From contig CAWAWS010000003.1 in NCBI GenBank assembly GCA_963785725.1, forward strand, positions 96,001 to 160,000: a stretch of 64,000 bases of DNA, written 5' to 3'. Positions within the stretch are counted from its first letter, which is position 1. Every line of letters begins with the position of its first letter. The stretch comes from an uncultured delta proteobacterium. Its GTDB lineage: Bacteria; Myxococcota_A; Polyangia; Palsa-1104. The notes beneath the pieces were generated by a model. It made no database searches. It saw only the letters and a list, made by a program, of their open reading frames with translations, and had not been told where the DNA came from. Positions 27,655 through 34,886 of the stretch are shown here, piece after piece. The position numbers and the translations under genes were made by a program.

Positions 27655-28821
27655 TCAGCCCTTTACGCACAAGAGCTGCTTGAGCTCGGCCACGATCTCG
27701 ACCAGATCGCGCTGATTGGCCATGACCTGATCGATCGCCTTATAGGCGCCGGGGATCTCGTCGATGACGCCGTGATCCTTGCGGCACTCCACTCCCGCCG
27801 TCTGCGCGCGCAGATCGTCGAGCGTGAACGTTCGCTTGGCCGCCGAGCGCGACATGCGGCGGCCGGCGCCGTGCGACGCCGACTCGAAGGACTCGGCGTT
27901 GCCCAGGCCGCGTACGATGTACGAACGCGTTCCCATCGAGCCGGGGATGATGCCGAGCTCGCCGCGTCCGGCGCGGATCGCGCCCTTGCGCGTCACCAGC
28001 AGCTCGGCGCCGAAGTGCTGCTCCTCGGCGACATAGTTGTGGTGGCACGAAATGGGCGGCGCGAACGCCACGTCGGACCGAACGAAGCGCGCGAGCACGG
28101 AGCGGTAGAGCTCGAGCATCACCTGCCGATTCGCCGCCGCGTAGCGCTGCGCCCAGAACAGATCGCGACGATACGCGGCCATTTCCGCCGTGCCGGCCAA
28201 AAATACGGCCAGGTCGCGATCGGGCAGCTCACGGTTATGCGCCAGCTGCTTGGCGCGATGGATATGCAGCTCCGCCAGCTCCTTGCCGATGTTGCGCGAA
28301 CCGGAATGCAACATCAGCCAGACGCGATCTTCGGTGTCGAGACAGAGCTCGATGAAGTGGTTGCCTCCGCCCAGCGTTCCCAGCTGCTTGCGCGCCTTGC
28401 CCTCCAGCGACTGCACGCGCTCGTCGAGCGCACCGAACTCGGCGAACAGGTCGTAGTGGCGGGCCAGCTTCACGTCGTCGTGCGCGTTGAAGCCGACGGG
28501 GATCAGCGCTTCGATCGCCGCGCGCAGATCGCCGAGCTGCTCGGGCAGATCGTGCGAGGTCAAGTTGGTGCGCTGCGCGGCCATGCCGCAGCCGATATCG
28601 ACGCCGACGGCCGCGGGCGCGATCGCGTCTTTCATCGCCACGACCGAGCCGACGGTGGCGCCCTTGCCGAGGTGCACGTCGGGCATCACCGCGACGTGCG
28701 AGAAGCACCACGGCAGCGACGCGATGTTCTTGAGCTGCGTCAACGCCGCCGACTCGACCTCTTCGAGCGGCGCCCACATCTTGATGGGTACGTTCTTTCC
28801 TTTGAGCTCCGAGATGGACAT
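27655..28821 (-). CDS. rtcB: RNA 3'-phosphate/5'-OH ligase RtcB
   Basis: MPDVHLG, VGVDIGCG, GGGNHFIE, HSGSR, HHNY, PGSMG, SHGAGR and AYK motifs. Confidence 0.97.
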   Translation of the reverse strand: MSISELKGKNVPIKMWAPLEEVESAALTQLKNIASLPWCFSHVAVMPDVHLGKGATVGSVVAMKDAIAPAAVGVDIGCGMAAQRTNLTSHDLPEQLGDLRAAIEALIPVGFNAHDDVKLARHYDLFAEFGALDERVQSLEGKARKQLGTLGGGNHFIELCLDTEDRVWLMLHSGSRNIGKELAELHIHRAKQLAHNRELPDRDLAVFLAGTAEMAAYRRDLFWAQRYAAANRQVMLELYRSVLARFVRSDVAFAPPISCHHNYVAEEQHFGAELLVTRKGAIRAGRGELGIIPGSMGTRSYIVRGLGNAESFESASHGAGRRMSRSAAKRTFTLDDLRAQTAGVECRKDHGVIDEIPGAYKAIDQVMANQRDLVEIVAELKQLLCVKG

Positions 28822-28964: not shown

Positions 28965-28966
28965 CG

Positions 28967-29040
28967 TGCTCCGAGCGCGATTCGAACGCGCACTGGACGA
29001 CTTCTGAGACCGTCGCCTCTACCGATTGGGCTATCGGAGC
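28967..29040 (-). tRNA. tRNA-Leu(CAG), short variable loop
   Basis: GCTCCGA/TCGGAGC acceptor; loop CT-CAG-AA; TTCGAAT T-loop. Confidence 0.85.
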
Positions 29041-29069
29041 AAAACAGAGTGCCTCGGGCAGAGAGTGAG

Positions 29070-29136
29070 CAGGTCGCCGAGGAGTCGAACCTCGCTGCCC
29101 GGTTTTGGAAACCAGGCCGATCCCAGATCGCGACCC
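29070..29136 (-). tRNA. tRNA-Trp(CCA), reduced D-arm
   Basis: GGGTCGC/GCGACCT acceptor; loop TT-CCA-AA; D region only GATC-TGG-GATC. Confidence 0.75.
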
Positions 29137-29152
29137 AAGGGCGAACAAAATT

Positions 29153-29229
29153 GCAGCTGGTGGAAACGGAGGGTTACTCCGCGTCGGACACCCGTGTCCG
29201 ACATTCCGGGTGGGGGATAACCCAGCTGC
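29153..29229 (-). ncRNA. Small structured RNA (GCTGGGTTATC family, copy 2)
   Basis: Terminal stem GCAGCTGG/CCAGCTGC and two adjacent hairpins. Confidence 0.5.
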
Positions 29230-29270
29230 TCCGGCTCGCCGACAGCGAAACAAAACGCGGACGAGGAATC

Positions 29271-29337
29271 GGGCTGGGGTTGCGGGCTTCGAACCCGCGC
29301 CGGCGTTGGCCGGCTTCAACCGATGATAACCCAGCCC
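29271..29337 (-). ncRNA. Small structured RNA (GCTGGGTTATC family, copy 1) with a T-arm-like hairpin
   Basis: Terminal stem GGGCTGGG/CCCAGCCC; GCCGGC hairpin; GCGGG-TTCGAAG-CCCGC. Confidence 0.5.
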
Positions 29338-29349
29338 ATTCGGCCCGCG

Positions 29350-29423
29350 TGGAGCCACTCGTCGGAGTCGAACCGCCTTGCCCGTATACGAGACGGGTGC
29401 CTTCCCGGAAGGCAACGAGGGGC
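29350..29423 (-). tRNA. tRNA-Thr(CGT), irregular (6-bp D-stem, can fold 9/3)
   Basis: CCCGT-CTCGTAT-ACGGG anticodon arm; encoded CCA. Confidence 0.75.
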
Positions 29424-29495
29424 AAATGCCGGCCGCGATCGGCCGGCGGTATTACTCAGTCTTCGAACGCGCTCGTGTTCCCATTACAGTTACAG

Positions 29496-31145
29496 TTACG
29501 GACGTGGCCGCGTGCGCGCGAAGTCGGCCAAGATCGTCGGCGTGGCCGTATCGAAGCCGACCACGTCGAGCATCCCGGCATCCGTCGGATCGGCGATCGA
29601 GAAGCCGTTCGACACCATGCCCACGACCACCAGCTTGGCCGCGATTCCCAGGCGCTGCCGATACTGTCGCAGCGCCTGCGCCGGATGGATGCCGCCGGCC
29701 CACGTCTCCGAGTCGGTGTAGATGACGAACGTATCCACCTCGACGCGGCGCTCGATCGCCCACAACATCGGCTGCGCGCAGTCGGTGCCGCCGAAGGGCA
29801 GCCCGCTGACCCGCTCGACGGCGCGGTCGAGCCGCCAGTGCGGCGAGATGTCGAGCTCCGTCAGCGACGGTGCACCGCCACCATATTGCCCGCCGTACTG
29901 GCCGTTGCCGGCGCTCGTGAAGGCGACGAAGGCGTGCTGCTTCTCCGTCGCCGCCGTCACCAGCGCCATCGCCGCGCTCGCCACGCGCGGCGTCAGCCCG
30001 GGCACGCCCGCCACCGCGCCGCCGTCCATCGAGCCCGAGACGTCGAGCGCCAGCAGCGTCCGCATGCCCGATGGCTCGACATGCTTGAACGACGCATGGA
30101 ACGCGTCGCTCAGCGCGTCGACGATCGCGGCCCGCGGCGTCCACGTGTGCTGGCCGCGGACGCCGCGACCGGCGGCGTACGTCTTGAGCGCCGCCAGGAT
30201 CGCGATCGGATGGATGCGCGCCGCCGCCAGCCGCGCGCCGTCGCGCAGCCGGTCGGCCACGAGCCGCGTGGCGTCGCTGAGCACGCCCAGCAGCCCGACG
30301 CGGGTCATCGTCGCCAGGTTGCGGATCAGCGCCGCCAGCGGCATGTGCTCGAGCAGCGCCTCCCACACGCGCGCCTCGTCGAGCCACACCGTCGGGACGC
30401 ACTCGCGCGGCAGGTTGTGCTGCGTCACCAGCCGCACGATCTCGCGCACGTCGGTCGCGCGCTTGGCCTGCTCGAAGGCGTCGACGAGCGCCAGCGCCGG
30501 CGGCACCGGCTGCCGCAGCTCGCCGCGCACGATCCAATGATAGAGCTCGTCGTGCTCGGCCGACGGCGCCTTCGGGTGGGCGAGACGCAGCAGATCGCGC
30601 GTCGACCAGCCGTCGCGCGACTGATACTTCACCGCCTGGTACGCGACAGTACCAACGGGCTTGTCATTGAACCAGCGCTGCACCGCCGTCCGCGTAGCGC
30701 GGCCCCAACCACCGAACGCTTGTACGTATTCGGCGAAGTGCATGAGGTGCGTGCCCGTGCGGCAGACCTGGGGCAGCGCCGCCAGGGCCGCGCGGCGCGT
30801 CGCGAAGTCGCCGCGCTTGGCGGCCATCGCCAGCGCGAAGATCGCCGGATCGTTCTTGGGCGCCCGGCCGGCGTCGCTGACGGCGACGATCTGCGCGACG
30901 GTGCGCGCGCCGTCGCCGTCGATGCAGCGGGCGACCGCCTCGGCGTTCTCCCGCGTCAACGCCGGCTCCTTGGCGTAATAGCTGCCGCCCTCGGTGCCGA
31001 GAATCAGGAAGCGGTCGAGCCGCGTCCAGTCGTCGACGGCCCAGGCGAAGCCGCCGCCGGAGTTGGCGACCTGCGTCGAGCCCGGAATGGGCTGCGACTG
31101 CGGCGTCTGGTTGAGCGAGAACAGCTTTCCATAGTTGATACCCAC
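29496..31145 (-). CDS. rsr: Ro60 ortholog (TROVE + vWA domains)
   Basis: NSGGGF..RLDRFLILGTEGGSYY, KYQSRDGWS, LIRNL, DVSGSM MIDAS, GGTDC and DVVGFD motifs; AAGGAGGT RBS. Confidence 0.96.
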   Translation of the reverse strand: MGINYGKLFSLNQTPQSQPIPGSTQVANSGGGFAWAVDDWTRLDRFLILGTEGGSYYAKEPALTRENAEAVARCIDGDGARTVAQIVAVSDAGRAPKNDPAIFALAMAAKRGDFATRRAALAALPQVCRTGTHLMHFAEYVQAFGGWGRATRTAVQRWFNDKPVGTVAYQAVKYQSRDGWSTRDLLRLAHPKAPSAEHDELYHWIVRGELRQPVPPALALVDAFEQAKRATDVREIVRLVTQHNLPRECVPTVWLDEARVWEALLEHMPLAALIRNLATMTRVGLLGVLSDATRLVADRLRDGARLAAARIHPIAILAALKTYAAGRGVRGQHTWTPRAAIVDALSDAFHASFKHVEPSGMRTLLALDVSGSMDGGAVAGVPGLTPRVASAAMALVTAATEKQHAFVAFTSAGNGQYGGQYGGGAPSLTELDISPHWRLDRAVERVSGLPFGGTDCAQPMLWAIERRVEVDTFVIYTDSETWAGGIHPAQALRQYRQRLGIAAKLVVVGMVSNGFSIADPTDAGMLDVVGFDTATPTILADFARTRPRP

Positions 31146-31187
31146 GGCTCACCTCCTTACGGCCCGCTCCATACGGGCGATTCAGGT

Positions 31188-31263
31188 TGGTACGGAGCCA
31201 GGGAATCGAACCCTGCGCAGCGAGTTTGTAGGACTCGTATCACCCCCAGGTGAGCTGCTCCGC
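31188..31263 (-). tRNA. tRNA-Val(TAC), C33
   Basis: CGAGT-CCTACAA-ACTCG anticodon arm; encoded CCA. Confidence 0.75.
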
Positions 31264-31284
31264 ATGAAATGCAATGCAATGACG

Positions 31285-31357
31285 TGCTCCCGGCAGGAGT
31301 CGAACCTGCAATGTCCGGTTTAGAAGACCGGCGCCCATTCCATTGGGCTTCGAGAGC
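31285..31357 (-). tRNA. tRNA-Arg(TCT)
   Basis: CCGGT-CTTCTAA-ACCGG; full cloverleaf. Confidence 0.9.
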
Positions 31358-31377
31358 GATTGGACGCAAACAAGCAG

Positions 31378-31450
31378 TGCTCCCGGCAGGAGTCGAACCT
31401 GCACTTCATCCTTCGCAGGGATGTGACCTATCCATTAGTGCGACGGGAGC
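31378..31450 (-). tRNA. tRNA-Arg(GCG)
   Basis: CATCC-CTGCGAA-GGATG; weak D-stem. Confidence 0.8.
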
Positions 31451-31464
31451 TTGAATACATCGAG

Positions 31465-31536
31465 TGTCCTCGCCAGGAATCGAACCTGGAATGTCGGCTT
31501 CGGAGACCGGCGTGAGATCCATTTCACTACGAGGAC
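31465..31536 (-). tRNA. tRNA-Arg(CCG)
   Basis: Loop CT-CCG-AA; GTCCTCG/CGAGGAC acceptor. Confidence 0.88.
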
Positions 31537-31556
31537 GACGCTGTCACTTCAGTGAG

Positions 31557-31749
31557 TAGTCGTGGCGGGATTCGAACCCGCACGGTCGAAGCAAGAGATC
31601 CTCTGAGGAAACGCGCTTCCCTGCCAAAGCGTTCCCGCCCGGGCCCGGTGCATCCGTAAACCTTGGATCTCGCCGCCGTCAGGCGTCTCCGACTGCTTTC
31701 GCTATCGGTTTCCGTTTTTCCGACGCGCTCCCTTTTGCGCTACACGACC
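31557..31749 (-). ncRNA. 193-nt tRNA-like RNA with a large domain replacing the anticodon loop
   Basis: Acceptor GGTCGTG/CACGACT, D-arm GCGC/GCGC, T-arm GCGGG-TTCGAAT-CCCGC; stem GTCGGA/TTCGAC encloses a multi-hairpin insert. Confidence 0.7.
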
Positions 31750-31760
31750 ATTCGAAACGG

Positions 31761-31833
31761 TGGAGTCGGAGGGAGTTGAACCCTCGTCTCTGCGATGCGA
31801 GCGCAGCGTGTTCCCGTTATTCACCACGACCCC
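31761..31833 (-). tRNA. tRNA-Ala(CGC)
   Basis: G3:U70 pair; CTGCG-CTCGCAT-CGCAG. Confidence 0.88.
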
Positions 31834-31918
31834 TTGCTACAGCGGCGAGACACGACGAGCAGTGTTGAAAGACCGAGCGCGTCCTGCATAGGTCGTCATT
31901 CGGCGTTTCATTCAGCTG

Positions 31919-31991
31919 CGCCCCAGCGAGGAGTCGAACCTCGTTCTCCGGTGCTTCAGACCAGCGCGTAGACCGCATACGCTACCGGGGC
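31919..31991 (-). tRNA. tRNA-Phe(GAA)
   Basis: CTGGT-CTGAAGC-ACCGG. Confidence 0.85.
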
Positions 31992-31992
31992 G

Positions 31993-32066
31993 TGGCGCCT
32001 GCGACGGGAGTTGAACCCGTAACACTCGATGGACAGTCGAGCCGCCGGCCGTTGGCGTTCGCAGGC
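31993..32066 (-). tRNA. tRNA-Asp(GTC), C37
   Basis: CTCGA-CTGTCCA-TCGAG; G73 and encoded CCA. Confidence 0.8.
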
Positions 32067-32087
32067 AAAACGAAAATGAAAATGGGG

Positions 32088-32185
32088 TGACCCAAAAATT
32101 GCACCTCCCACTCCGTAGCTCGCCGCGGAATGAACCGCGTCGGAGTGGTCCCTCGCTCGAGGTCGGCCCGGTGCCTCTGCCGTCA
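32088..32185 (-). ncRNA. Structured RNA, Y-RNA candidate
   Basis: TGAC/GTCA and GCACC/GGTGC closing helices, CCACTCCG/CGGAGTGG stem, T-loop-like CGCGG-TTCATT-CCGCG. Confidence 0.45.
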
Positions 32186-32187
32186 TT

Positions 32188-32262
32188 TGGTCAGCGTGGT
32201 CGGGATCGAACCGACGATCTCCTGCTCCCAAGGCAGGCGCGTTACCGCTTCGCTACACACTG
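32188..32262 (-). tRNA. tRNA-Pro(TGG)
   Basis: CCTGC-CTTGGGA-GCAGG; encoded CCA. Confidence 0.9.
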
Positions 32263-32264
32263 AT

Positions 32265-32500
32265 TGGCGTCCCGTGCGGGAATCGAACCCGCGTTCTCGG
32301 ATTGAAATCAGAAGGCCTGCCCATTAGTACCTCGCCACAGCAATTTCGACCGGTCTGCGCCGGTCCGCGACGCCCATGGCTTCGTTGCGACTCCTCAGAA
32401 TACAACCAGTATTCCTTCGTCCTCGCGCCTCGCCCTGGACGCCGCCTCCTCGGCGGATACCAATCAAAATCACTGTGGCGAGGTACCAGCCGAACGGGAC
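32265..32500 (-). pseudogene. tRNA-Glu (probably TTC) interrupted in the D-arm
   Basis: GTCCCGT/ACGGGAC acceptor, T-arm and GCCA end are intact; halves separated by a 160-bp insert; anticodon loop only 6 nt (TTTCAA). Confidence 0.7.
32327..32486. mobile_element. MITE-like element with terminal inverted repeats
   Basis: 14-bp perfect TIR GTACCTCGCCACAG (18/20 when extended); no transposase; TTAG/CCAG at the junctions. Confidence 0.65.
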
Positions 32501-32502
32501 AG

Positions 32503-32574
32503 TGACGCTGGAGAGAGTCGAACCCTTCATTCCCCGACTGAGCATCGGGTGGCCTTCCGTTAGCCGACAGCGCC
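32503..32574 (-). tRNA. tRNA-Glu(CTC), G33
   Basis: CCCGA-TGCTCAG-TCGGG. Confidence 0.75.
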
Positions 32575-32578
32575 GAAA

Positions 32579-32651
32579 TGGAGGTCCGCCGCGGAGTTGA
32601 ACCGCGCCACTGCCGATTTGCAGTCGGCATCACTCGCCGGAGCCGCGGACC
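32579..32651 (-). tRNA. tRNA-Cys(GCA), short D-arm
   Basis: GCCGA-CTGCAAA-TCGGC; U73 and encoded CCA. Confidence 0.82.
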
Positions 32652-32658
32652 CGAGCCG

Positions 32659-32734
32659 TGGCGTACCCCCAGGGAATCGAACCCTGCTTGACCCGCTTAA
32701 CAGGCGGGTGCCATCCCAGTCCGGCGCGGGGTAC
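32659..32734 (-). tRNA. tRNA-Asn(GTT)
   Basis: CCCGC-CTGTTAA-GCGGG; G73 and encoded CCA. Confidence 0.85.
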
Positions 32735-32770
32735 GAAGTATTAAGGAGACATAGATCGCGGAAGTGCGAG

Positions 32771-32841
32771 CTCGGGCGCGTGGAATCGAACCACGATGAC
32801 GAGATCCAAATGCTCGCGTCCTGCCATTGGACGACACCCGA
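32771..32841 (-). tRNA. tRNA-Gln(TTG)
   Basis: U1-A72 acceptor TCGGGTG/CGCCCGA; loop AT-TTG-GA. Confidence 0.8.
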
Positions 32842-32842
32842 A

Positions 32843-32917
32843 TGGAGCGCGGTGCGGGAGTCGAACCCGTCCTCGCTGACTTGGAAGGCCAGGGCCCAAC
32901 CGCTAGACCAACCGCGC
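32843..32917 (-). tRNA. tRNA-Gly(TCC)
   Basis: CTGGC-CTTCCAA-GTCAG; U73 and encoded CCA. Confidence 0.85.
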
Positions 32918-32926
32918 CGAAGATCG

Positions 32927-32998
32927 TGCCGCCGGCAGGAATCGAACCTGCACCCAGCCGGTTAAAAACCGGCTGCTCTGCCGCTGAGCTACGGCGGC
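32927..32998 (-). tRNA. tRNA-Lys(TTT)
   Basis: GCCGG-TTTTTAA-CCGGC; canonical D and T arms. Confidence 0.92.
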
Positions 32999-33009
32999 GT
33001 TGCCGCTTT

Positions 33010-33084
33010 TGGTGCGCGCCGTGGGAATCGAACCCACCTTCAACGGATTAAGAATCCGTCGCCTCACCAGTCGGCTTGGCGCGC
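33010..33084 (-). tRNA. tRNA-Lys(CTT)
   Basis: ACGGA-TTCTTAA-TCCGT; encoded CCA. Confidence 0.9.
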
Positions 33085-33139
33085 AATGGAGCTCTCTTCC
33101 GAAAGACGAGAGCTCTCTTCTCATGACGTCGCTATTCGA

Positions 33140-33173
33140 TTATCAAAGCGGACGAAACCAATCGGTTTCGCCC
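33140..33173 (-). promoter_or_regulatory. boxB-boxA-like antitermination signal
   Basis: Hairpin GGGCGAAACC-GATT-GGTTTCGTCC directly followed by GCTTTGATAA. Confidence 0.4.
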
Positions 33174-33180
33174 ATATTCG

Positions 33181-33265
33181 TGGGCCGCCTGGGAATCGAA
33201 CCCAGCGAGCTCCGCGGAGCGCCTGATTTACAATCAGGCCCGTCTCCATAACGGTCTAACGACCC
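33181..33265 (-). tRNA. tRNA-Tyr(GTA)
   Basis: CCTGA-TTGTAAA-TCAGG; long variable arm. Confidence 0.88.
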
Positions 33266-33273
33266 GGGCGCAG

Positions 33274-33345
33274 AGCGGCCGGCGGGAATCGAACCCGCCA
33301 CTCCGACTTGGCAAGCCGGCGTGTCTCCCACGACACCTCGACCGC
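33274..33345 (-). tRNA. tRNA-Gly(GCC)
   Basis: CCGGC-TTGCCAA-GTCGG; U73. Confidence 0.88.
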
Positions 33346-33374
33346 AGGACGCACGAATCCCCTGGCGCGCATTC

Positions 33375-33523
33375 GAGCGTTCGAGCCCAAATGCGCCTTT
33401 CGGGAGCGCTGGTCTGCCGATGAGCTACGCGGCCGTCAGATGCGGAGCACCGACGGACCGCACGCCGTGAGTCGATCGCGGAAACCCCAATGGTCTCCGA
33501 CGTCGACCTCGCCGTTCGCGCTC
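33375..33523 (-). ncRNA. YrlA-like Y RNA candidate (permuted tRNA module)
   Basis: T-like arm CCGCG-ATCGACT-CACGG, then loop-closed acceptor-like stem TGCGGTC/GGCCGCG, then D-like TAGCTCATCGGCAGA; ends pair GAGCG/CGCTC. Confidence 0.45.
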
Positions 33524-33602
33524 ATCTGTCCGTCGTGTTTGTCCCGCATCCTCGCTCTCGCGCGCTGCGAAGGCGCGCCTGGTTCTGGTTTCGGTCGCCG
33601 AA

Positions 33603-33679
33603 ACGGCGAAGGGCCGGGAACCTCTCGGTTCACCGGCCCTTGGGTCGATCCTGTGCTGCTAAGGATCAAACTAAGGGCC
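33603..33679 (-). terminator. Attenuator: competing antiterminator and terminator helices
   Basis: AAGGGCC (33641-33635) can pair with GGCCCTT at 33679-33673 or GGCCCTT at 33615-33609; tail TTCGCCGTTT. Confidence 0.6.
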
Positions 33680-33823
33680 GCTATTGTCCCAATCGAGGCA
33701 CGGCTGACGACCATGGAAATTCTCCACGATTCGTCCGCACGTACGCAGACCGGCCACGGCGACGACGCGCGTCGAGCGCGTCGTGTCTTGGCCGTTCCGA
33801 TACAATTTGGTTTCGCTCGACAT
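33671..33823 (-). CDS. Putative 50-aa leader peptide of the tRNA/rsr/rtcB operon
   Basis: MSSETKLYRN...DWDNSGP*; last codons GGC CCT TAG form the antiterminator strand; contains all 20 amino acids. Confidence 0.55.
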   Translation of the reverse strand: MSSETKLYRNGQDTTRSTRVVAVAGLRTCGRIVENFHGRQPCLDWDNSGP

Positions 33824-33842
33824 GGAAGAATCTCGTCCCCTC

Positions 33843-33872
33843 TTGCTAAAGGCTACGACGAATAGAGTCAAG
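33843..33872 (-). promoter_or_regulatory. Putative sigma70-type promoter
   Basis: TTGACT-N17-TAGCAA with an AT-rich upstream tract. Confidence 0.45.
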
Positions 33873-34331
33873 TAAAAATCGAAACTGCATATTCGTTTTC
33901 ATTCTACATACGAGTATTGAATTCATTATTCGCTATTCTTCTCGCGCAGATTCCCGGCGCGCACGAATCGATTGGGGACTGGACGATCGCTCGGCCATTC
34001 TTGCCGCCGGGCCGGCAGCTCCGCGCGCTCCAGCGGCCTCGCATTCCAGCGCTGAGACGATCGAGCCCGCGCTCTCGCTCGACGACGGTGTCGCCGGAGA
34101 TCGTCCTCGGCCATCGCCGCCGGAGGATCAAAGAGATCAGGACGTTAGTATCGCGGTCACGGAACGCCCGACAGCAACGTCGGCAGCGAGCACACGTCAC
34201 GATCGCAGGAGGCAACGGCGCGCGGCGTGGCCGTGACAGCCGGGCGACGCGCGACCCGCTAGGCAGTGCCGGCGTCGGCGGTGTAAGGTCGCGTCGCGCA
34301 GTAAAAGGCGCCATTCAGGGAGACAGAGGCC

Positions 34332-34886
34332 ATGGCCAAGAAGATGTCGGATACGAACAAGAACAAGCTCAAGCAGGCGCGCGAAGTGCGGCTGGCGACG
34401 CCGACCGATCTGTCCTCGGAGGCGACGCGCGACATCGGCGGCGCGCTGAACGGCATTTTGGCGGACGTGTTCGCGCTCTACTTCAAGACCAAGAACTTCC
34501 ATTGGCACGTGAGCGGACCGCACTTCCGCGACTACCACTTGCTGCTCGACGAGCAGGCGGACCAGATCTTCGCGATGGGCGATCCGATCGCCGAGCGCAT
34601 CCGCAAGATCGGCGGGCCGACGATCCGCTCGATCGGTCACATCGCCAAGCTGCAGCACATCAGCGACAACGACGCCGATTACGTCGATCCGCTCGACATG
34701 CTGGCGGAGCTGCGCGAGGACAACAAGTCGCTGGCGTCGCGGCTGCGCGATGTGCACGACCTCGTCGACGAATTCCGCGACATCGCCTCGGCCAGCCTGA
34801 TCGAAAATTGGATCGACGAGACCGAGCGCCGCACCTGGTTCCTGTTCGAAGCCAGCCGCCGCGGCGACGCCGGCACCGGCCACTAG
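34332..34886 (+). CDS. dps: Dps-family DNA-protection ferritin-like protein
   Basis: KTKNFHWHVSGPHFRDYHLLLDEQ, IAERIRKIGG and ERRTWFL motifs. Confidence 0.93.
   Translation: MAKKMSDTNKNKLKQAREVRLATPTDLSSEATRDIGGALNGILADVFALYFKTKNFHWHVSGPHFRDYHLLLDEQADQIFAMGDPIAERIRKIGGPTIRSIGHIAKLQHISDNDADYVDPLDMLAELREDNKSLASRLRDVHDLVDEFRDIASASLIENWIDETERRTWFLFEASRRGDAGTGH

Follow-up and report, generated by a model that had tools for sequence, protein, structure and literature searches.

A 64,000-nucleotide (nt) stretch of DNA from an uncultured delta proteobacterium of the class Polyangia (contig CAWAWS010000003.1, positions 96,001 to 160,000; hereafter, the window) carries on its minus strand a 50-codon leader reading frame, the end of which forms one strand of a putative terminator/antiterminator switch and behind which lies a long array of tRNA genes. 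We judge it modestly probable that this leader is a ribosome-dependent transcription attenuator heading 20 supernumerary tRNA genes, a Ro60/Rsr gene (probably with a Y RNA), and an RtcB gene, and that it would open when translation of its all-amino-acid leader lags. The reading is carried by what is seen of the leader: its anatomy, its conservation among relatives, and the bias in its amino-acid composition. An earlier note on this DNA, made from the sequence alone, had proposed a leader peptide coupled to such a switch; its frame, fold, and amino-acid set have been upheld, whereas the operon context of 20 tRNAs, Ro60/Rsr, and RtcB had been overlooked.

Long arrays of supernumerary tRNA genes occur widely and move by horizontal transfer, their purpose is unclear, and the only regulation worked out for them (in Anabaena) acts at the promoter. 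If our reading is true, the leader would provide a direct, protein-free link from the state of the tRNA pool to the supply of spare tRNAs and RNA-repair enzymes, by an attenuator logic distinct from that of the textbook one-amino-acid sensors. It would also supply a sequence signature (a frame, a stop at the antiterminator, and full amino-acid coverage) for finding such switches elsewhere. Our literature search, outside of which most subscription journals lie, found nothing joining tRNA arrays with a leader peptide, attenuation, or an antiterminator, nor any leader containing all 20 amino acids.

Anatomy of the leader and its alternative folds

The leader frame uses 20 different amino acids and 35 different codons over its 50 sense codons and reads on the minus strand as first described. 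Its A- and T-ending codons had been called unusual among the neighboring genes, and the G+C content at third codon positions is 0.70 for the leader frame, against 0.75 to 0.93 for the neighbors. The hallmark of an amino-acid-specific attenuator, a run of cognate codons, is absent from the frame, most amino acids occurring once or a few times. Neither the leader peptide nor the open reading frames (ORFs) overlapping it on the opposite strand belong to a Pfam family, and a word search for relatives of the peptide returned none. No Rfam family, whether T-box or another described leader RNA, matches positions 33346-34000, even at E values up to 1.

The promoter-like site upstream of the frame (Table 1) shares its −35 hexamer, its 17-nt spacing, and the first three bases of its −10 hexamer with the paralogous leader of the same genome (L006; loci are designated by L numbers) and with L004, L132, L137, L175, L122, L127, and L142. 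A stricter consensus scan for promoters and terminators called nothing at the leader, neither this site nor the hairpin tail. In one leader family, the −10-like hexamer ends ~7 nt 5′ of the ATG, which suggests a leaderless message in that family.

The frame runs into the first strand of the antiterminator: the last seven bases up to and including the first base of the stop codon (33679-33673) are the exact complement of 33641-35, and the helix encloses a small hairpin, at the position of which other leaders have a hairpin of differing sequence. The downstream strand is shared, since 33641-33 can alternatively pair with 33617-09 and thereby close the terminator hairpin. Both helices, including the inner stem, had been proposed in the earlier note and are present as it described them. 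The region 33560-33700 folds more stably than 198 of 200 shuffles (z = −2.58). To follow the nascent transcript, bare RNA was folded up to the terminator loop, and in this fold the 5′ strand of the antiterminator is paired with a mean probability of 0.85; when a ribosome at the stop codon was modeled by blocking 45 nt, the fold of the window leader weakened from −31.3 to −5.8 kcal/mol and the antiterminator was lost. The claim that a ribosome at the stop masks the first strand thus holds in folding, where bare nascent RNA prefers the antiterminator and the block abolishes it.

The same relationship extends to other leaders. In nascent folds, the 5′ arm of the terminator pairs with the frame end at a mean probability of 0.45 to 0.88 in 13/13 leaders whose arms were set by hand, and at a probability of at least 0.45 in 17/24 when the arms were set automatically; it never pairs with RNA further upstream, and an untranslated leader should therefore read through, unlike that of trp. 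Strand sequences vary among leader families, with complementarity retained. For comparison, six ordinary terminators sharing the hairpin motif show no frame-end pairing above shuffles (P = 0.28 to 0.88). In the window and its close relatives, the antiterminator strand is immediately followed by the stop codon; in the Burkholderiales type, the stop comes ~20 nt later. This geometry fits a ribosome whose position would choose between the two folds.

A search for covarying helices, suggested in the earlier note, came out in its favor. The RNAalifold consensus of a 10-leader alignment contains 12 terminator pairs, of which 3 have compensatory changes, and the antiterminator helix in that alignment (A2) is paired in 82.6% of cells, versus 17 to 77% in slid registers. 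The terminator hairpin of the paralogue likewise has a change on both sides that preserves one pair. From a MAFFT alignment of 23 leaders, RNAalifold returned no structure, as the arms of different families do not line up in it.

Recurrence of the leader ahead of tRNA arrays

Relatives were gathered through three samplings, all blind to the peptide: by the hairpin motif, by DNA of the tRNA block, and by the Rsr protein. The resulting set of 24 leaders is composed of that of the window and 23 others, namely, the same-genome paralogue, members of the same class, and two Burkholderiales leaders (L080, L129). Left out were L139 (frame cut by a contig end), L178 (upstream region cut), L180 (two tRNAs at a contig end), L082 (same place as L004), L193 and L196 (no such leader), and six loci with non-tRNA genes downstream (L122, L127, L130, L142, L189, and L190). 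In all 24, a frame of 42 to 72 codons opens shortly after the promoter-like site and reaches to the antiterminator strand, and an automatic search locates, 10 to 42 nt downstream of the stop codon (median, 21 nt), a hairpin of −20.7 to −29.9 kcal/mol whose tail window has at least 4 T. As such, an ORF with its stop at the antiterminator strand, the feature by which the earlier note had proposed aligning homologous leaders, recurs in 24/24 tRNA-array leaders. That an open frame and complementary strands came together by chance is hardly credible: eleven all-20 ORFs of this size do occur by chance in the genome, and GC-rich strands pair readily, but the arrangement is repeated in 24 leaders from three independent samplings.

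The paralogous leader, on contig C39 of the same genome, is 68% identical to that of the window. Behind it, the operon (L185, 7464-12000, minus strand) continues with five tRNA genes, an ORF of 71 codons that has no Pfam family, a paralogue of Rsr, and finally a gene for an HNH endonuclease.

The hairpin motif gave 82 matches in the genome scan, of which only L080 and L082 stand before tRNA clusters, the rest being chance matches or ordinary terminators; L082 carries the same 14-tRNA array as L004. Among 26 matches in metagenomes, those kept as leaders were L129, L132, L137, L139 (partial), L142, L122, L127, and L130. In viral contigs, the stricter motif had no match, and a looser one had 29 (L090 to L118), all in a single family of phage coding sequence without tRNAs and, hence, irrelevant here. 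The apical hairpin motif is also the terminator of ordinary genes in unrelated bacteria (L119, L120, L126, L133, and L134); given its recurrence at ordinary terminators and inside phage coding sequence, the motif alone is no marker of the leader.

Six tRNAs of the array, used as a DNA query against 401 genomes of the class, recovered L175, L176, L177, L178, L179, and L182, with 21 to 33 tRNAs, and L181, a cluster of at least 5; upstream DNA is readable in six of these seven loci (L178 being cut). In a phylum-wide search of the same kind, the two longer matches were housekeeping clusters. Rsr is common in the class: the protein search matched in 63 of the same 401 genomes (a tally that includes two unpublished ones), with 42/67 in one family. 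Twenty of the Rsr loci, picked for spread, were inspected: in 13, the Rsr gene is embedded in a tRNA array, and at 11 of these 13 arrays, the leader type is present. The association of Rsr with tRNA arrays is not described in the Y RNA paper, as far as its passages go. In Burkholderiales, this architecture is found ahead of a cluster of 4 tRNAs (L080, L129) and, in two further genomes, immediately ahead of rtcB (L189, L190).

Three loci from metagenomes (L122, L127, and L130) have the same promoter-like site, a frame of 28 to 32 codons, a small hairpin, and a terminator before genes for membrane Ser/Thr protein kinases; their tail motif is near-identical, and their amino-acid diversity is ordinary.

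A frame that is kept while its sequence drifts

The ratio of nonsynonymous to synonymous substitution (pN/pS) in the leader frames is 0.5 to 1.6, with substitutions spread evenly across the three codon positions, and length differences within families are whole codons. A frame that is kept while its sequence drifts is what would be expected if translating the leader mattered but the resulting peptide did not. Two rival explanations bear on this point. The first, that the element works only as RNA, with hairpins that serve the tRNA precursor in its processing, stability, or protein binding while the frame is incidental, agrees with a leader RNA that is highly structured, with the conservation of the apical part of the hairpin and of the tail motif, and with an unconserved peptide. 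We consider it improbable nonetheless, because all 24 leaders have a 42- to 72-codon frame from promoter-like site to antiterminator strand, because relatives differ in length by whole codons, and because the bias in amino-acid coverage has no RNA-level explanation.

The second would make the leader a small-protein gene in its own right, the terminator of which insulates the array, and would have the array transcribed from a separate promoter within the 255-nt spacer. In its favor, no arrangement is commoner than a gene with a terminator behind it, the hairpin motif also ends ordinary genes elsewhere, and the spacer was checked for promoters by one consensus scan only. Against this, a pN/pS near 1 speaks against a functional protein, the peptide has no Pfam family and no relatives that we found, the element always heads arrays or repair genes, and the frame end duplicates the 3′ arm of the terminator, a feature missing from ordinary terminators. 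We rate the small-protein explanation a shade more improbable still than an element of RNA only.

Amino-acid coverage of the leader frames

In amino-acid coverage, the window alone is unconvincing, and coverage is more than chance only through its repetition in relatives. All 20 amino acids occur in 11 of the 4,827 (0.23%) ATG-initiated ORFs of 45 to 55 amino acids in the window genome (mean, 14.5 different amino acids), and the probability of all 20 in the window frame is P = 0.011 given its own base composition and P = 0.029 given its codon-position composition. Among the 24 leaders, 11 contain all 20 amino acids, 18 contain at least 19, and 22 contain at least 18. Although P values for single leaders against their own base or codon-position composition are mostly 0.005 to 0.15, Fisher's test over 9 clusters (combining the median of each cluster and excluding the window because it had prompted the question) gives p = 1.5e-11 against genome ORFs, 6e-7 against base composition, and 2.6e-6 against codon-position composition. 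Because five GTG starts had been chosen by eye, we also counted the last 45 codons only, such that the result is independent of start choice: here, the leaders average 17.1 different amino acids versus 12.8 in 98,104 background frames, and 8/24 leaders have at least 19, versus 0.43% of the background. The all-amino-acid composition seen in the earlier note is thus, as a near-complete set, a trait of the family. Diversity is ordinary (P = 0.36 to 0.85) in four leaders of this type that precede genes other than tRNAs, and the two rtcB leaders, which were delimited by hand, have 19 and 17 amino acids in 60 codons.

These data bear on a further rival explanation, according to which the same attenuator reports only general ribosome slowing or stalling (caused, e.g., by antibiotics or ribosome damage) and the amino-acid set is a by-product of balanced base composition in a drifting frame. 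The base-composition null already lifts the expected diversity to 16 to 17 of 20, single codons give weak sensitivity, Trp is often too near the stop for sensing, the same leader type precedes kinase and RtcB genes, and the analogous leader PA5471.1 is described as a ribosome-stall sensor in passages of PMC12057347. Coverage nevertheless exceeds that expected from each frame's own codon-position composition (the combined p of 2.6e-6); with a pN/pS near 1, it should have decayed to the null, yet it is kept in clusters that can no longer be aligned; and there is no such coverage before non-tRNA genes (only 4 leaders, which are shorter). On this evidence, we regard a sensor of general slowing alone as rather unlikely.

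Proposed mechanism and the points that weigh against it

In the attenuator that we favor, transcription would start ~14 nt before the ATG, and the 50-codon leader would be translated during its synthesis. A ribosome keeping pace would be at the stop codon as the polymerase reaches the hairpin and would cover 33679-33673 and the small hairpin; 33641-33 would then be free, the terminator would close, and transcription would end near 33603-33598. Were the ribosome to lag, to stall several codons earlier, or never to load, the frame end would pair with 33641-35 first, the terminator stem would not be completed in time, and the polymerase would enter the tRNA genes. Read-through would be the default, unattended state, and termination would need a ribosome that arrives at the stop codon in time with the polymerase. 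With nearly every amino acid represented in the leader, the switch should open upon loss of almost any charged tRNA, as well as upon a general slowing of ribosomes; spare tRNAs and RNA-repair proteins would then be released until translation recovers and shuts the switch. Translation of the leader, termination, kinetics, and the physiological signal are all predicted here from sequence.

A hairpin inside the frame (Table 1) is a possible polymerase pause site that would let the ribosome catch up; in the paralogue, the corresponding codons also form a hairpin, with another stem sequence.

We put forward a more specific version tentatively, and with less confidence than the attenuator itself, in which the leader acts as a sentinel of tRNA integrity: the peptide would be selected only to hold every amino acid, loss of a single tRNA would halt the ribosome and free spare tRNAs, Ro60/Y RNA, and RtcB, and translation would re-close the switch. 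Such tRNA loss could come from the anticodon nuclease of a competitor or of a defense system. The same tentative standing applies, jointly, to the proposal that this design has been kept class-wide in the lineage of the window and recurs in Burkholderiales.

Several observations weigh against the attenuator reading and concern, in the first place, the folds and signals of the window itself. The T tract is short as well as interrupted, and the terminator scan passed over it, as the caveat about a weak U-tract in the earlier note had anticipated (5 T in a 12-nt window), although the tail motif is conserved over 23 aligned leaders and most relatives have longer runs, of 4 to 6 T. In a full-length fold, the terminator is favored by ~8.5 kcal/mol (−39.8 versus −31.3), and any switch must therefore be kinetic. 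GC-rich arms pair easily: shuffled frame ends still yield 3 to 8 pairs, and in the comparison of leaders with shuffles, P is 0.005 to 0.28 and at most 0.05 in only 7/13. The purine run resembling a Shine-Dalgarno sequence sits 13 to 19 nt from the leader ATG, a remoteness that had also been flagged as a caveat and that the measurement bears out, and an internal promoter is possible in the 255 nt between the hairpin and the first tRNA.

Other points concern the peptide as a sensor. Most amino acids occur singly in a leader, with no codon runs of the kind found in sensitive classical attenuators; Trp lies 4 to 7 codons from the stop in 9 of the 17 leaders that contain it; and from codon 2 to L−6, where L is the frame length in codons, all 20 amino acids are present in only 5/24 leaders, and 18 in the window. 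The claim in the earlier note that a stall at any earlier codon would open the switch is therefore too strong: in the window, Trp is placed 6 codons before the stop, Met occurs only at the start, and the likely effective stretch covers 18 amino acids. In five of the 24 leaders (L080, L129, L179, L208, and L209), a GTG start was chosen by eye, and the kinship of the leaders means that the statistics overstate their independence despite clustering.

The remaining points concern context. The same leader type also heads genes for Ser/Thr kinases and RtcB, plus one other gene, and it is missing from two of the Rsr-linked tRNA arrays (L193, L196). At L193 (858-1354, same family), a short tRNA-Rsr cluster without a leader has a divergent MarR-family gene and a perfect intergenic inverted repeat, which seems to be an alternative mode of control for these genes; L196 is structured differently, its 38-codon frame containing 15 amino acids.

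Comparison with known systems

The attenuators of trp, his, phe, thr, leu, and ilv resemble the leader in having a short, promoter-proximal frame, a strand common to antiterminator and terminator, and a ribosome near the stop that decides between them. Their leaders are several-fold shorter than the 42- to 72-codon frames described here. The leader differs from these classical systems in containing all or nearly all twenty amino acids and no codon run for a single one; in lacking an upstream strand that sequesters the antiterminator, such that an untranslated leader should read through rather than super-attenuate; and in controlling tRNAs and RNA-repair genes, not biosynthetic enzymes.

A likeness in context is seen in PA5471.1 of Pseudomonas aeruginosa, which stands before armZ and PA5470/prfH, just as the Burkholderiales relatives of the window leader directly precede rtcB. 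In passages of PMC12057347, the RtcB-like armZ is made dependent on ribosome stalling by this leader peptide and the terminators downstream of it, and passages of PMC13041342 add a response to loss of Cca, the tRNA CCA-adding enzyme. Unlike the window leader, PA5471.1 is tied to particular codons (Gln3 and Phe4, according to the same passages of PMC13041342) and has no tRNA array; the two are likened by description, not by sequence. The mechanism proposed for the leader fits both this gating and the stress induction of long tRNA arrays.

The long arrays of cyanobacteria (L-arrays, such as the trn operon of Anabaena PCC 7120) resemble the window in joining a long supernumerary tRNA array with rtcB and dps. 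Passages of PMC8421152 describe long tRNA arrays of Anabaena as induced by translational stress and list dpsA and rtcB as neighbors or co-regulated genes of such cyanobacterial arrays; "leader," "attenuat-," and "terminator" are absent as words from its text. Control of the Anabaena trn operon acts at the promoter, through direct repeats and the repressor TrcR (passages of PMC10272220), and differs in this respect from the translated leader and terminator proposed for the window, which would involve no repressor site.

The Salmonella rsr-yrlBA-rtcBA operon, which passages of PMC7790460 link to damaged tRNAs, is like the window in having Ro60/Rsr, a Y RNA (in the window, a candidate), and RtcB on one strand. 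It is switched by the activator RtcR, whereas no RtcR-type activator is found among the 15 proteins scanned at 20859-45202 (the rest of the genome was not searched), and the window operon adds 20 tRNA genes.

The whiB7 leader and toiL, which lies before topAI-yjhQ, are further translated upstream frames with which the leader can be compared. Of these, toiL acts through Rho, and the whiB7 leader is tuned to alanine and antibiotics; to our knowledge, neither controls tRNA genes, and neither has been described as covering all amino acids. Both report ribosome stalling to a termination decision, according to passages of PMC10274678 and PMC12121999.

The operon behind the leader and its surroundings

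Downstream of the leader, on the same strand, ARAGORN finds 20 tRNA genes in 4,380 bp (28966-33345), of which 12 reach the Rfam tRNA threshold and 8 miss it. The window array is thus a tRNA array unit in the sense given in passages of PMC4758250 (at least 20 tRNA genes, two or more per kb). Because the genome has 86 tRNA genes in total, those of the array are supernumerary copies; no such leader stands upstream of the two housekeeping tRNA clusters of this genome. The array lacks tRNAs for Met, Ile, Ser, and His, although the leader frame uses those amino acids, and a comparison of leader codons with array anticodons, made by eye only, shows no clear pattern.

Table 1. Features of the leader, its operon, and adjoining DNA (window positions)
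Feature	Positions	Strand	Details
A+T-rich stretch upstream of promoter-like site	33880..33945	−	Common to paralogue L006; read directly from sequence
Promoter-like site	33843..33871	−	−35-like hexamer 33871-66, 17-nt spacer, −10-like hexamer 33848-43; picked by eye
Leader reading frame	33671..33823	−	ATG 33823-33821 to TAG 33673-33671; 50 codons + stop
Intra-frame hairpin	33762..33784	−	8-9 bp; −21.9 kcal/mol in 40-nt window
Antiterminator 5′ strand (frame end + first stop base)	33673..33679	−	Pairs with 33641-35 in nascent-RNA fold
Small hairpin enclosed by antiterminator helix	33647..33667	−	6-bp stem, 33667-62 with 33652-47
Terminator hairpin, 33 nt	33609..33641	−	9 bp + bulge + 5 bp + 4-nt loop; −27.1 kcal/mol
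Interrupted T-containing tail, expected termination zone	33598..33610	−	5 T in 12-nt window
First 17 tRNA genes of array	31188..33345	−	ARAGORN
Ro60/Rsr gene within array	29496..31145	−	Pfam TROVE 9.3e-41, vWA_Ro60 2.6e-61
Last three tRNA genes + possible Y RNA (29251-29351)	28966..29423	−	ARAGORN
RtcB RNA ligase gene, after array	27655..28821	−	Pfam RtcB 3.6e-127
Dps-like gene, divergent upstream	34332..34886	+	Pfam Ferritin-like 5e-26

Just downstream of the Rsr gene and abutting a tRNA-Thr gene, positions 29251-29351 (minus strand) match the Rfam family Deinococcus_Y_RNA with 40.2 bits (E = 8.8e-5), below the threshold of 80; it is a candidate Y RNA and, as such, the likely RNA bound by Ro60 here. 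The A+T-rich stretch that the window shares with its paralogue may be a functional element.

At the Burkholderiales loci L189, L190, and L080, the DNA that separates the terminator from rtcB, or from the tRNA cluster, includes a conserved region of ~150 nt. The two ends of this region are complementary over ~15 nt, and it may encode a long-stem RNA resembling Y RNAs; no Rsr gene turned up in the DNA examined around these three loci. The spacer of the window (33346-33597, minus strand) holds three further stable hairpins, and a stretch of the 80- to 260-nt spacers between the terminator and the first tRNA appears, by eye, to be conserved among the window, L004, L132, L175, L139, and L179.

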